Notes: generated by a model not told the origin, from the sequence alone. A DNA stretch of 64,000 nt from Kiloniellaceae bacterium (GCA_048268885.1 JBLWUP010000028.1:6315-70314); one strand, 5' to 3'. Positions 36,762-41,433 are shown, counted from the stretch's first letter. Program-made: numbers and translations.

Positions 36762-37850
36762 TCAGGCGGTCCGCAGGGTGTCGCGGCCTTGCCGGCGATA
36801 CTCGCCGGGCGTCCGGCCGGTGATCCGGCGGAACTCGCGATTGAAGTTCGACTTGGTGCGGAAGCCGGCTTCCAGCATGACGTCGGCGGCCGGCCGGTCG
36901 CTCTGAAGCAGCAGGGCCGCGGCATCTTCCACGCGCCGCCGGTTCACGAACTGGGAGAGGTTCTCGCCGCGCAGCCGGTTGACCGCTTCCGACACCCGCC
37001 GTGACGGCACGCTGAGGCGCCGCGCCAGCCGGCTGAGGCTGAGGTCGGGATCGTGGTGCAGTTTGTGGCTTTCCAGCAGCGTCTCGAGGCGGGCGATCAG
37101 CGCGCGGTCGGCTTCTGCGTCGCTGTCCTGGGTTTGTGCCGTCGCGGCGGATGGTGACGCGGCGCGCAGCGGATAGAAGACGGCGGCAGCCAACAGCACC
37201 GGGATGATGGCCGCACTGCCGAGGGCGATGAGGCCGCCGGCATGGCGCCCCGCCGCCGCCACGAAGTCGACCGCGATCGCGCCGTCCAGCGCGGCCATGG
37301 CGGCCAGCAGGGCGATCGCCGCCAGCAGCCAGGCGCGGGTCTGCGCCACCTCGCCGAAGCCCGCGGCCTCGAAGTGGTCGGGACCGCGCCGGTAGAGCCG
37401 GACCATCAGCACCAGATAGACGAGGAAGCTGCCGGCGATCAGCAGATCGACGATGCCGAGCGCCAGGGGCGCCAGGGGCGGCAAGGCCTGCGGATCAATC
37501 ACGGCCGGCGCCAGCCAGCAGGCGAGGATCGCCAGGCCCGCCGCCGCGGCGTGAACACGCGGCGCCTTTCCTTGCAAAACCTCCGGCGCCGCCATGGCCC
37601 GGAAGCCGAGATAGGTGAGCGGGCCGACGGCAAAGGGCAGGGCGCGCTGGAAGGGGGCGAGGGCCTCCACGCCGTAGCCGAAGCGCAGGCCGACCAGCAG
37701 GGCCTGCAGCGCGAAGACGCCGAACAGCAGGGCGAAGCAGCGGCGGCTGCCCGGGGTGCCCGCCCGGCTGCGGACGACGAGCAGCGCCAGCACCAGCGCC
37801 ACGGCGGCCGTCAGGAAAGAGATCGGCAGGGAAGGAAGGGACGACAGCAT
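36762..37850 (-). CDS. Membrane-anchored AraC family regulator
   Basis: About six N-terminal TM helices; C-terminal LSLSRLARRL..VSEAVN..FVNRRRV..AGFRTKSNFNREF. Confidence 0.88.
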   Translation of the reverse strand: MLSSLPSLPISFLTAAVALVLALLVVRSRAGTPGSRRCFALLFGVFALQALLVGLRFGYGVEALAPFQRALPFAVGPLTYLGFRAMAAPEVLQGKAPRVHAAAAGLAILACWLAPAVIDPQALPPLAPLALGIVDLLIAGSFLVYLVLMVRLYRRGPDHFEAAGFGEVAQTRAWLLAAIALLAAMAALDGAIAVDFVAAAGRHAGGLIALGSAAIIPVLLAAAVFYPLRAASPSAATAQTQDSDAEADRALIARLETLLESHKLHHDPDLSLSRLARRLSVPSRRVSEAVNRLRGENLSQFVNRRRVEDAAALLLQSDRPAADVMLEAGFRTKSNFNREFRRITGRTPGEYRRQGRDTLRTA

Positions 37851-37979
37851 CGGTGTCTCTCGGCTGGCCGCTGAGTGGTACTCGATCGCGATTCAGGTTT
37901 TGAATCCCCGGGGCGCCGGGCTGCAGCCGCCCGCAGGGGAGCATAGCTTCATGGCCTCTCTCGAACACGGAGTTTTGCC

Positions 37980-39065
37980 ATGCGCATTCTTACCTTGATC
38001 CAGGTGGCCGCGGCGGCCTTTCTCTCGCTGGCCTGCCTTCCGGCGACGGCGTCGTCAGCCGCCTCCTATCAGGTCGGCCTTGCCGAACTGCAGCTTGCCG
38101 ATCCGCAGGGCCTGCGCCCGCTTCACGTCCACGTCCTCTATCCGGCCGCGCCGGGCGGCGAGGCCATCCTGCTGCGCGACACCTGGGCGCAACAGGGTCT
38201 CGAAGCGGTGCCGGACGCGCGGCGGGCGGCGGGGCGGTTTCCCCTGGTGCTGATCTCCCATGGCCTCTACGGCCGCTGGACCAACTATGGCTGGCTGGCG
38301 GCGGCGCTGGTGGCCGAGGGCATGATCGTCGCCCTGCCGACCCATCCCGGGACGGCCTGGACCGACAAGGAGTCTCCGGAGACCGCCAAGCTGTGGCGGC
38401 GCCCGCAGGATCTCAGCCGGATCATCGACCACCTGACGGCCGCGCCGGGCTGGCGGGAGGCCGTGGACGCGGACCACATCGCCGCCATCGGCCATTCGCT
38501 GGGCGGCTTCACGGTGATGGCCGCCGCCGGGGCGCGTTTCGACACGGCGCGCTACCGCCGCTATTGCGCGGCCCACCCGCAACGCGGCGACTGCCGCTGG
38601 TACGCCGCCGCGGGTGTCGAGCGTGTCGCGGGCGCTGCCGCGAAGCTGGAAAGCATTGCCGCCGATCCACGCGTCACGGCGGTGGTGTCCTACGACCTCG
38701 GCTTCACCCAGGCCTTCGATCCGGCCAGCGTCGCGGCCATCGACATTCCGGTGCTGGTGATCGGCGCGGGCAACCATCAGGCGGAGCTGCCGGTGGCCGC
38801 GGAGTCCCGCCGCCTCGCCGAGATGCTGCCGCCCGCGACCAGCGACTACCACGAGATCGCGGACATCAGTCACTTCTCCATTTTTCCCCTCTGCAAGCCG
38901 GGCGCCGTCGAGCGCCTGGAAGCGATCGGGGAGGGCGATGAAGTGATCTGCCTGGACGGGCGCGCAGGCGGCCGCGGGCGCGTTGCCCTGCACGCAGAGC
39001 TGCTGAGGCTGGTGAAGGGTTTCCTGCGCGGCGCCGGTTTCGCGCTGGCGGGCAAGGGCGGCTGA
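37980..39065 (+). CDS. Exported alpha/beta hydrolase (dienelactone hydrolase/PAF-AH-like)
   Basis: Signal peptide; LISHG, GHSLGG nucleophile elbow, SHFSIF..CK. Confidence 0.85.
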   Translation: MRILTLIQVAAAAFLSLACLPATASSAASYQVGLAELQLADPQGLRPLHVHVLYPAAPGGEAILLRDTWAQQGLEAVPDARRAAGRFPLVLISHGLYGRWTNYGWLAAALVAEGMIVALPTHPGTAWTDKESPETAKLWRRPQDLSRIIDHLTAAPGWREAVDADHIAAIGHSLGGFTVMAAAGARFDTARYRRYCAAHPQRGDCRWYAAAGVERVAGAAAKLESIAADPRVTAVVSYDLGFTQAFDPASVAAIDIPVLVIGAGNHQAELPVAAESRRLAEMLPPATSDYHEIADISHFSIFPLCKPGAVERLEAIGEGDEVICLDGRAGGRGRVALHAELLRLVKGFLRGAGFALAGKGG

Positions 39066-39196
39066 CGGCGCTCCGGCGCGTCGAGGCGGGCGAAGGCGCC
39101 GGCGTGCCGCGCGAAGCGAAAGAAACATTTTTGCGGCTGCCGCGACATCCGACAGAAACACGGCGGCTCTAGATTTCTCCTCATTGACCTGCCCCG

Positions 39197-39311
39197 TTCC
39201 GGAGGGCTAACCCCATCTCCCAGTCCTCCGGAACAACAGGGATCACCCAGTCCCTGGGTTGGTGGGGCGCCGGTGCCCATCCGGCGTCCCACCGATCATT
39301 TCGCTCCTCCC
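39197..39311 (+). ncRNA. Candidate structured small RNA (or ssDNA hairpin cluster)
   Basis: 12-bp and 13-bp stems, each with one G-U pair on the + strand; C-rich loop; repeated CCCAGTCC; CTCCTCCC anti-SD motif. Confidence 0.4.
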
Positions 39312-39319
39312 TCTTCCTG

Positions 39320-39409
39320 CCGTTAGACGAGGGCTTCCGTTGGACGAGGGCTTCCGTTGGACGAGGCCTTCCGTTAGGCGAGGCTTGCCGTTGCGCGCGG
39401 CCTTCCGTT
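39320..39409. repeat. 17-bp tandem repeat, five units plus a partial sixth
   Basis: ccgttagacgagggctt / ccgttggacgagggctt / ccgttggacgaggcctt / ccgttaggcgaggcttg / ccgttgcgcgcggcctt / ccgtt. Confidence 0.9.
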
Positions 39410-39469
39410 CGGCGGGCCGCCGCTGCGGCCGCGCCCTGCCCATCCTTTCAAGCTGTGGCCCTGAATAAA

Positions 39470-39507
39470 GGGTCAGGTCTTGGAATTTGCATCGAGACTG
39501 CTATGAT
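39470..39507 (+). promoter_or_regulatory. REP-like end motif and probable leaderless promoter of the Y1 gene
   Basis: GGGTCAGGTCTTG overlaps TTGGAA (39480-85); TGcTATGAT extended -10 (39499-507) lies 6 nt before ATG 39514; no SD. Confidence 0.45.
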
Positions 39508-39513
39508 GCGCCC

Positions 39514-40443
39514 ATGGCGCGGCCTCTTCGTCTCGAACTGCCCGGTGCGGTCTACCACCTCACCACCCTCGGCAATGCCGGCCAGCCGGTGTTCCGCGAG
39601 GCGGAGGATTCCGCACTTTTCCTGGAGATCGTCGGCCAGGCTTGCGAGCGCTTCGACTGGCGCTGCCTGGCCTATTGCCTGCTGCCGGACCGCTATCACC
39701 TGGTGGTGGAGACCCGGCGGGCGACGCTGGCGCGCGGCATGCGCCAGATCAACGGGCGCTATACCCAGGCCTTCAACCGCCGCCGGGGCCTCGGCGGCCA
39801 CCTGTTCCAGGGCCGCTACCGGGCGGTCATGGTGGAAAAGCCCGGCTTCGTGGCCGCGGTCTGCAGCGAAACGCTGCGCCGGCCGCTGGAACTGGGCCTG
39901 ACGGGCGACGCCGCTGCCTGGCGCTGGAGCTCTTGCCGCGCCACGCTGGGGCGCCTGCCGCCGGGACGCGCGGCGCCGGACTGGCTGGCGGTGAAAGACG
40001 TGCTGGCGCTCTTCGGGGACGGCCCTGCTGTGGACGGCCCTGAAGTGGATGGCCAGCCCACATCGGATTTGGCCACGGCGCGGCGGCGCTTCGAGGCGGC
40101 GCTGCGGGAGACGGAGGGGCCGTCGGTGTGGGAGAACCTGCGCCACCAGGTCTTCCTCGGGTCCGAGGCCTTTGTCGCCGAGATGCGCGAGCGGGCGCGG
40201 ACGGAAGCGGGCCGGCGCGGCAGTCTGGCGGAAATTCCCAAGGCCCAGTGGCAGGCCCCGCCACCGCCCCTCGAGAGGTTCGCCGCCGAAGCCGCCAGCC
40301 GCGACGAGGCCATGGCCCGGGCCTACTTGAGCGGCGCTTACAGTCAGGGCAGCATCGCCGCGCATTTCGGGGTACACTACAGCACGGTCAGCCGGGCGGT
40401 CCGGCGCTTCGAAAAGAAGCTTGAAGAAGCGGACGCCCCCTGA
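39514..40443 (+). mobile_element. RAYT/IS200-like Y1 HUH transposase homolog with C-terminal HTH, catalytic residues degenerate
   Basis: MARPLRLELPGAVYH, AYCLL, GMRQING.YTQ.FNRR, GHLFQGRY, W.WSS, IAAHFGVHYSTVSR; HUH reads RYH and the catalytic Tyr position reads Glu. Confidence 0.85.
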
Positions 40444-40531: not shown

Positions 40532-40756
40532 GTGTTGTTGCGAAACCTGCTTGTCTCTGCGGCGCGGCGCATTGCCGCCAATCCCGAGGTCCAGGCAAAA
40601 GCGGCCGAGACCTACGAGACGGCGGTGAAGCCGCGCCTCGCGGTGGCCCGCGACGAGTTCCGCGACCTGGCAGCCGAAGTCGATCCGGTGAAAGATCCGG
40701 TGGCCTTCGCCCGGCGTATCCGCGACCGGATCCGCGACGTCAACAAAGGCGACTGA
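40532..40756 (+). CDS. Small hypothetical protein
   Basis: 74 aa, GGAGGG RBS, GC3-rich codons. Confidence 0.6.
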   Translation: MLLRNLLVSAARRIAANPEVQAKAAETYETAVKPRLAVARDEFRDLAAEVDPVKDPVAFARRIRDRIRDVNKGD

Positions 40757-40884
40757 TCCGGGTCTTCTGTTTCATCCAAGCTTCACGAAACCGCGGTGTG
40801 ACGCCGCGGGCAAGAGGTGGCAGCCTTTTGGGCTTTGCTAACCCTTGGTGCTATACTGAACCATTTGTTTCATGGCGTAGGGGG

Positions 40885-41433
40885 CTGACCATTTCAGCCG
40901 ATTTCACAGAGGCCGAGCGGCAGCGTTTTCACAATCTGCTGCAACTGGCGGCCGAAAGCCCCTTCGAGGGCGAACGCTCGAATGCCTTGGCGGCGGCCGA
41001 ACGGCTGGCCAAGCGCTTTGGGCTGACGCTCGACGAGGCGGCGGCCGGCGGCTCGGCGGAGGAACCGCCGCCCGATGAAGCGCGCGGCGACGCGCATATG
41101 GCCGACGACCTGGGCTTCCGGCCGGAAGGCCTGGACCGTTTCGCGCGCGCCGTCCACCTGATGGACAACTTCATCCTGCAGGACAAGGCGCGGCGGGAAG
41201 CGGCCATGCGTGCGGCACAGTCACGCGGTCTGGATGCGGACGAACTGCGCAAGGCCGTCACCTCCTCCGTGACCCAGGCGCGCAAGACCAAGAGCCGGCG
41301 CATGAATCCCTATCGCCACGCGGCCACCCTGCTGCGTGAGACGTCGCTCTCGTTCGGCGAGATCGCCAATATCACCGGCCTCGATATCTATTCGGTCGTC
41401 GGACTGAAGCTGAAGCTGCGCGCGACGAACTGA
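40885..41433 (+). CDS. DUF2786-like protein with C-terminal HTH-like segment
   Basis: RFHNLLQLAAESPFEGERSNALAAAERL (DUF2786 pattern); LSFGEIANITGLD; start codon uncertain. Confidence 0.6.
   Translation: MTISADFTEAERQRFHNLLQLAAESPFEGERSNALAAAERLAKRFGLTLDEAAAGGSAEEPPPDEARGDAHMADDLGFRPEGLDRFARAVHLMDNFILQDKARREAAMRAAQSRGLDADELRKAVTSSVTQARKTKSRRMNPYRHAATLLRETSLSFGEIANITGLDIYSVVGLKLKLRATN

Follow-up and report, generated by a model that had tools for sequence, protein, structure and literature searches.

The 64,000-nt stretch of Kiloniellaceae DNA analysed here (the window) carries a gene that resembles Y1 transposases, but in which the residues that such enzymes use for DNA cleavage appear to have been replaced. 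An initial annotation, made from the sequence, described the product as an intact but catalytically dead transposase, probably exapted as a binding protein for single-stranded DNA hairpins or RNA and possibly working with the hairpins and the 17-bp repeat array upstream of the gene. Such a gene raises two questions: whether it is a relic in decay or has been taken over by the host, and, if the latter, what the protein would recognise. We approached both by comparing the gene and its surroundings with those of orthologs and intact relatives.

A Y1 fold joined to a helix-turn-helix

The reading frame is full-length, as described initially, encoding 309 aa without stops. Pfam Y1_Tnp (PF01797) matched residues 13–109 (E = 1.4e-7; 32.1 bits against a cutoff of 23), and the NCBIfam RAYT model NF047646 (REP_Tyr_transpos) aligned with residues 6–139 at 47.4 bits, under its cutoff of 80. 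The C-terminal helix-turn-helix (HTH) was recognised by two Pfam models (Table 1), and six of its residues (H288, Y289, V292, S293, R294 and A295) are invariant among 66 dead and intact relatives. Searching the PDB by sequence with the protein yielded zero matches, and the structural relationship came from a fold search. The predicted fold was confident (AlphaFold model from 66 relatives; pLDDT 91.9, pTM 0.81), with pLDDT above 90 throughout the Y1 domain. The PDB entry that matched it best in Foldseek was E. coli TnpA_REP bound to a REP hairpin (4ER8; E = 1.2e-6, target TM 0.69), with the transposases of ISDra2 and IS608 next, among 29 matches at E ≤ 1e-3.

The linker between the two domains contains a 15-nt repeat, delimited by TRF at 40017–40054 with 2.5 copies. 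It had been noted to preserve the frame, and the ortholog alignment bears this out, placing it as an in-frame insertion in a variable linker; it is species-specific, most orthologs being without it. The repeat units are VDGPE here and APDL in the ortholog of another species (G038, L033), both in tandem and in frame. The name "addiction module toxin RelE", attached to some relatives in the databases, was rejected, as it was without Pfam or NCBIfam support. PADLOC found no match for the Y1 protein or its three downstream neighbours.

Table 1. Positions of the features discussed, numbered along the window unless a contig of the source genome is given.
Feature	Position	Strand	Basis
Structured RNA-like element: invariant 5' stretch, three hairpins, T-run	39185..39300	+	Covariation
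17-bp tandem array, ~5–6 copies, species-specific	39316..39410	.	
Retained left terminal inverted repeat (GGGTCAGGTCTTG) of the putative ancestral TIRYT	39470..39482	+	13/13 orthologous loci
Promoter-like site: TTGGAA, 16 nt, TATGAT	39480..39507	+	Sigma-70-like match, conserved in orthologs
Dead Y1 + HTH gene, 309 aa (P0001)	39514..40443	+	Stop-free ORF; Pfam Y1_Tnp and HTH_28
Y1 (HUH) fold domain, residues 6–141	39529..39936	+	NCBIfam REP_Tyr_transpos, Foldseek, pLDDT
Former HUH motif, now Arg60-Tyr61-His62	39691..39699	+	Alignment with intact relatives (NHYHL)
Former catalytic helix: Glu119 at Tyr, Arg123 at Asn (metal ligand)	39868..39882	+	Alignments
15-nt tandem repeat, in frame, variable linker	40017..40060	+	TRF, ortholog alignment
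C-terminal helix-turn-helix, residues 267–301	40312..40416	+	Pfam HTH_28 (7.2e-7), HTH_23 (7.6e-5)
74-aa ORF and DUF2786 protein, conserved downstream neighbours	40532..41433	+	14/14 orthologous loci, Pfam
Extra 13-mer sites in the source genome (L076, L075, L073, L072)	C29:15485, C12:66006, C4:39739, C2:31269		

Catalytic residues are lost across a clade

Alignment with intact relatives placed Arg at residue 60 (CGC, 39691–39693), where the relatives have the first histidine of the HUH motif, and Glu at residue 119 (GAA, 39868–39870), where they have the catalytic tyrosine. The helix around the latter position reads CSETLRRP, compared to CRYVVLNP in the intact relatives. Both replacements (an RYH in place of HUH, and SETLRRP with Glu at the Tyr position) had been read correctly from the single sequence.

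The losses are not confined to the window. When the 120 closest homologues were aligned, P0001–P0065 shared LLPDRYxLVVET and VCR(D/E)xLRQP, with P0056 as the sole exception. These ~65 proteins are 57–86% identical, and some carry the source names Pelagibius or Kiloniellaceae. The next group, 46–50% identical, is intact, with NHYHLVVET and CRYVVLNP. In a tree of 245 relatives the dead clade that includes the window's protein (66 rows) was monophyletic with a support of 99 and stood beside an intact clade. A clade sharing the RY(H) and the loss of Tyr thus exists, and, P0056 excepted, close orthologs do not retain the His and Tyr.

Within this clade the positions have evolved differently. Where the first His would stand, Arg is near-constant, as is Asp or Glu in place of the Tyr. 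The position of the second His has drifted through H, Q, L, S, T, N, C, I, E and A. The Asn of the Y---NP motif, described for class 2 (PMC6006769), is Gln in the dead clade and Arg in the subclade of the window's protein. The ortholog alignment revealed no replacement Tyr elsewhere in the former catalytic helix, which speaks against another Tyr having taken over in the active site. We conjecture that a salt bridge between Arg60 and Glu119 may stand in place of the metal site.

Two sequences depart from their neighbours. P0056 joins an HUH region of the intact type to a C-terminal half of the dead type and may be a chimeric assembly. In the G041 copy (L038), ~25 residues past the helix that was once catalytic are garbled, suggesting a compensated frameshift.

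The gene is inherited vertically and is under purifying selection

The gene is single-copy in the source genome, and 16 of the 18 other species of this genus of marine bacteria have one copy each. The orthologs are intact where the contigs allow the gene to be read; two are cut at contig ends, and in one MAG (G036:C75) the gene is split into two frames. The downstream side is syntenic and on the same strand in 14/14 loci, comprising the 74-aa ORF, DUF2786, a 159-aa protein, DUF3305, DUF3306, a NarJ-like chaperone and a molybdoenzyme; the upstream side is variable. The gene, the RNA-like element upstream of it and the downstream block are all absent from two genomes, G034 and G043, which a small tree of two genes (parB and the araC-like gene described below) places inside the genus.

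Pairwise comparison of the orthologs by the Nei-Gojobori method (NG86) gave a median dN/dS of 0.27 overall, with regional medians of 0.25 (Y1 domain), 0.21 (HTH) and 0.55 (linker), and values of 0.06–0.14 for the dead Y1 domain in the closest pairs; these values are rough because codon bias in GC-rich genes makes dS underestimated. Rough as they are, they lie far from neutrality, and the dead Y1 domain is under purifying selection.

These results bear on the simplest alternative, that the gene is a decaying relic or, conversely, that it encodes an enzyme still active through other residues. Loss of catalytic residues has the look of decay in a single sequence, and the MAG copy split into two frames would fit it. 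However, the reading frames are intact, at 58–86% identity, in the species whose gene sequence is complete, and dN/dS is well below 1 in the very domain that has lost its catalytic residues. Residual activity is at odds with the unconserved second His, the lack of a substitute Tyr, the lack of extra gene copies and the loss of the right terminal repeat described in the next section. We therefore regard decay or residual activity as very improbable. The gene is immobile, single-copy, syntenic and under purifying selection, the features by which a domesticated transposase is recognised. Together with losses that span the clade, this agrees with the domestication proposed initially and argues against isolated decay.

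A transposon end is retained at the promoter

A TIRYT gene lies between two terminal inverted repeats that have GGGGWSAS in common (Di Nocera et al., 2013, PMC3733652). Proteins combining Y1 with a C-terminal Bac_DnaA_C, HTH_23 or HTH_28 domain form subclass 2.1 of TnpA_REP (Quentin et al., 2018, PMC6006769), to which most TIRYTs of the earlier study belong (PMC6006769). In the intact relatives, from related genera of the same family, we found GGGGTCAGGTCTTG 45–60 nt before the ATG and its inverse overlapping the TGA stop. These intact elements are multi-copy and occur in tandem or with repeat arrays. In one such genome, seven tandem terminal repeats (CAAGACCTGACCCCCGGTTAAC-like units) directly follow an intact TIRYT (L027, G006:C5), upstream of which lie truncated fragments of the 5' part of the gene, every one of them carrying a left repeat.

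The dead loci keep one end of this arrangement. GGGTCAGGTCTTG is identical in all 13 orthologous loci with upstream DNA read, and the spacers around it are unalignable. The repeat fits GGGGWSAS with one mismatch in the window (AGGGTCAG), and several orthologs and all intact relatives have GGGGTCAG. The right terminal repeat, on the other hand, is absent in all 14 orthologous dead loci. By these sequence features we identify the gene as an immobilised TIRYT descendant (TnpA_REP subclass 2.1), and the left terminal inverted repeat at its promoter as the conserved cis partner of the gene, which the initial annotation had overlooked.

The −35 box of the promoter-like site overlaps the left repeat. 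The site is the only sigma-70-like match within 2 kb (0.0 expected), and the positions of the −35 and −10 boxes are kept among the orthologs. The ATG follows the −10 box by ~7 nt, and the mRNA is therefore probably leaderless or nearly so. Conservation of the repeat at this place could reflect promoter function alone.

In the four most distant orthologs (L040–L043), a short element of the form TCCCGTCAC...GTGA-like lies ~150–200 nt upstream of the gene and faces a divergent upstream gene across the spacer; it is duplicated in L041.

Extra copies of the repeat are frozen at orthologous sites

Copies of the 13-mer were located genome by genome as exact matches. All 19 genomes of the genus contained 3–6 copies each, compared to 0–1 for a reversed-pattern control. 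Related genera without the HTH-bearing type had 0–2 copies (0–1 in 13 genomes of the sister genus g8), and genomes with intact elements mostly had 10–20. Several of the extra copies occupy orthologous sites: one within parB in 19/19 genomes and, among the ten genomes examined for the others, one within an araC-like gene in 10/10, one in the spacer before pspA in 7/10 and one within a sua5/tsaC-like gene in 5/10. There are a few lineage-specific sites besides. Because the search demanded an exact match, invariance within the sites found is in part by construction, and the informative measure is the rate at which the orthologous site was recovered.

The copies within parB and the araC-like gene were compared with the sequence around them. 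The parB motif encodes Q-D-L-T, and its codons (CAA GAC CTG ACC) are identical in 19/19 genomes. None of the four motif codons varies, compared to synonymous variation in 18 of the 18 flanking codons (Fisher p = 1.4e-4, 19 genomes). Outgroups with the same QDLT peptide in parB use CAG, GAT, CTT and ACN freely. In the 615-column parB alignment no invariant run is longer than that of the motif (16 nt, the next being 5), and the same holds for the araC-like alignment (15 nt, the next being 8). In the source genome 12 sites are able to encode QDLT, six in the form with the rare codon CAA and three in the CAG form. Chance or codon usage was rejected as the source of the extra copies: the reversed control gave 0–1, related genera without the family have 0–1, and the CAA form outnumbers the CAG form. 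Further copies of the repeat, two at the least and perhaps as many as four, thus stand at orthologous sites and are conserved at the nucleotide level. We read this as selection that probably acts on the nucleotide word itself.

At all four extra sites, the strand that corresponds to the host mRNA is the one with CAAGACCUGACCC, an orientation that would also fit a reader acting at the RNA level. When the motif strand was compared with the replication strand inferred from local GC skew in the source genome, the skews were weak and the polarity mixed. The two genomes without the gene, G034 and G043, still keep the parB and araC-like copies; the gene may be unassembled there, the losses may be recent, or another factor may read the motif.

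One alternative that the repeat itself brings to mind is a transposon-immunity factor, which would bind the repeats of incoming intact TIRYT elements or poison their transposase. Truncated transposases that inhibit IS elements offer a parallel. An intact member of the transposon family is absent from all 19 genomes of the genus, whereas related genera carry several copies and repeat arrays, and the HTH and the repeat that recognition would need are both kept. However, the lack of intact elements in one genus amounts to a single phylogenetic observation, and immunity leaves the frozen repeats inside parB and the araC-like gene unaccounted for. We consider immunity rather unlikely.

Loss of catalytic residues recurs in the subfamily

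Relatives of the protein number ~9,400 at E ≤ 1e-10. We surveyed the 150 best representatives of clusters formed at 50% identity. Both motifs were intact in 94 of these best representatives, 32 lacked both, and five had the Tyr without the HUH. In a further 13 of the 150 the HUH was intact and the Tyr was replaced by His (for example CRHVVLNP); they include P0121, P0139, P0201, P0224, P0235, P0253, P0257 and P0267. These Tyr-to-His proteins may be inactive or may use another chemistry. Well-supported branches of the tree force at least five separate origins of the dead state, and parsimony gives 14, a count to be read with the deep branches poorly resolved. With 32 fully dead and 13 Tyr-to-His proteins among the 150 closest clusters, losing catalytic ability seems to be a frequent outcome in the subfamily and not an oddity.

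The DNA of six further dead lineages was read, and the right repeat was present in none. An exact or near-exact left repeat was found at −96 in two of them (P0143 and P0136); three had degenerate traces of the left repeat only, one of these seen by eye only; and in the P0122 lineage the left repeat was entirely absent. Since the right repeat over the stop codon encodes Lys-Thr, a C-terminal Lys-Thr served as a DNA-free proxy for it. This ending was found in 19 of the 78 intact and in 0 of the 29 dead cluster representatives.

These lineages also bear on the possibility that the protein is a local regulator of the block downstream of it in the window, that is, of the 74-aa ORF, DUF2786, the secreted 159-aa protein, DUF3305/DUF3306 and the molybdoenzyme maturation genes. 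The common strand and conserved neighbours in 14/14 loci, the joint presence or absence of gene and block, and the finding of no terminator-like site between the Y1 gene and its 74-aa ORF and DUF2786 neighbours would all fit such a role. Synteny within one genus is, however, expected under vertical descent, and no copy of the motif was found near the downstream genes. The six further dead lineages, moreover, adjoin ordinary chromosomal genes that differ from lineage to lineage and are unrelated to this block (for example ribosomal protein L31, a ParA-like gene and membrane proteins). Local regulation of the block is thus quite improbable.

The upstream hairpins are conserved and the 17-bp array is not

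The hairpins (39199–39296) and the 17-bp array (39316–39410) that had been reported upstream of the gene are both physically present, and their conservation differs sharply. None of the 14 orthologous loci has the array, and it does not recur elsewhere in the source genome. It was rejected as an operator, since it is absent in every ortholog, and on the same count the proposal that it is a working partner of the protein did not hold. At the position of the array, one other species carries a 17-nt triplet repeat unrelated to it.

The hairpins, in contrast, belong to a structured RNA-like element present in one copy in 17/19 genomes of the genus, exactly those with the gene, and in none outside the genus. 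It comprises three helices with 34 predicted pairs, nine of which show compensatory changes. Its invariant 5' stretch is CATTGACCTGCCCC, the loop of hairpin 1 (CCCCATCTCCCAG) is almost invariant, and it ends in a GC-rich hairpin followed by a T-run. A search of Rfam at E ≤ 1 gave no match for the upstream hairpins or the spacer. On these features the element is a candidate small RNA. Its co-occurrence with the gene is uninformative, however, because the whole block has been gained or lost together, and physical linkage alone explains it.

Directly upstream of the element (36762–39065), the source genome encodes a secreted alpha/beta hydrolase and, on the minus strand, an AraC-family regulator. 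In the 14 orthologous loci, no homolog of either was found up to 6 kb from the gene.

The element and the dead Y1 domain together suggest a further alternative, in which the domain binds RNA or another single-stranded nucleic acid, partners the sRNA-like element and acts on mRNAs that carry CAAGACCUGACCC. The compensatory pairs, the presence of the element in exactly the gene-bearing genomes and the sense orientation of the four extra motif copies would be in keeping with this. The invariant 5' end of the element also resembles the motif at 10–11 of 14 positions, a likeness that may be due to chance. Against it, the element is not within the bounds of the old transposon, and three species have another gene in between, which sets it ~800 nt apart from the Y1 gene; the match in occurrence is accounted for by linkage, as above. 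No similar RNA stood out upstream of the other dead lineages, whose spacers were scanned for the repeat only. To our knowledge, Y1 enzymes are binders of single-stranded DNA and not of RNA. We consider partnership with the element unlikely. As a putative mode of binding, recognition of double-stranded DNA through the HTH is better supported than the binding of single-stranded DNA hairpins or RNA that had been proposed initially.

Discussion

The reading that we prefer, and hold to be probable, is that the gene encodes a sequence-specific DNA-binding protein that no longer cuts. It would still recognise the former end of the transposon, probably in double-stranded form and by means of the HTH. 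Because the repeat that it would recognise overlaps its own −35 box, binding there would repress its own promoter. It probably also occupies the copies in parB, in the araC-like and sua5/tsaC-like genes and beside pspA, which would make up a small regulon or a set of marks.

Several known systems resemble parts of this arrangement. The closest are the TIRYTs or TIRtrons (subclass 2.1, chiefly 2.1.2), with which the protein shares a size of ~280–310 aa, an N-terminal Y1 domain, a C-terminal HTH of the HTH_23/HTH_28 type, an absence of REP sequences and a left repeat that fits GGGGWSAS; its nearest intact relatives (46–50% identical) are bounded by the same 14-mer. The HUH and the catalytic Tyr are conserved in all TIRYT or subclass 2.1 members described (PMC3733652, PMC6006769), whereas the protein described here has lost both, and its gene lacks the right repeat and sits at one fixed locus genus-wide.

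The RAYT or TnpA_REP proteins (E. coli YafM, 4ER8) provide the best structural match and are likewise single-copy, vertically inherited host genes derived from a transposase. RAYTs, however, retain the HUH and Tyr, cut REP hairpins and have REPs on either side. In the present case REPs and repeated hairpins are lacking (both the spacer and the hairpin element upstream occur once in the genome, so the gene lacks REP-type flanks), an HTH is added, and the score against the NCBIfam model falls short of the RAYT cutoff.

TldR proteins, TnpB derivatives with a dead nuclease that serve as transcription factors (PMC10705468), correspond to the analogy drawn in the initial annotation. The proposed likeness is one of kind only: in both cases a protein of the IS200/IS605 world has lost catalysis and has repeatedly been kept by the host as a sequence-specific binder of nucleic acid, putatively so in the present case. 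TldR has a RuvC fold and is guided by RNA, whereas the protein described here has an HUH fold, and recognition would be by the protein itself.

InsA of IS1 and OrfA of IS911 are transposase-derived repressors that bind the terminal repeat at the transposase promoter. The overlap of the repeat with the −35 box is of this type, and binding would be autoregulatory here as well. IS1 and IS911 are active DDE elements, in contrast to the stand-alone host gene of the HUH class in the window.

Bacterial Y1 transposases have been domesticated as RAYTs, with their catalytic residues retained. The present case is a domesticated transposase and as such belongs to a known kind; what is new is that the protein is dead, immobile and selected genus-wide. 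We found no description of catalytically dead Y1 transposases in the literature searched, and the orthologous extra copies of the 13-mer in the genus are a new observation of this study.

A broader view, which we put forward as tentative, is that the dead transposase reads its former transposon end as a cis-element of the host. A handful of copies, among them those in the coding sequences of parB and the araC-like and sua5/tsaC-like genes, would be kept invariant at synonymous sites across the genus, for a regulon or for marking the chromosome. The subfamily has lost its catalytic residues repeatedly and possibly often. The frozen repeat copies are the most interesting and the most testable feature of the system, and they provide a concrete handle on its function. 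If this broader view is true, a transposon end turned into a regulatory word of the host would be the protein-guided counterpart of the transcription factors derived from dead TnpB.
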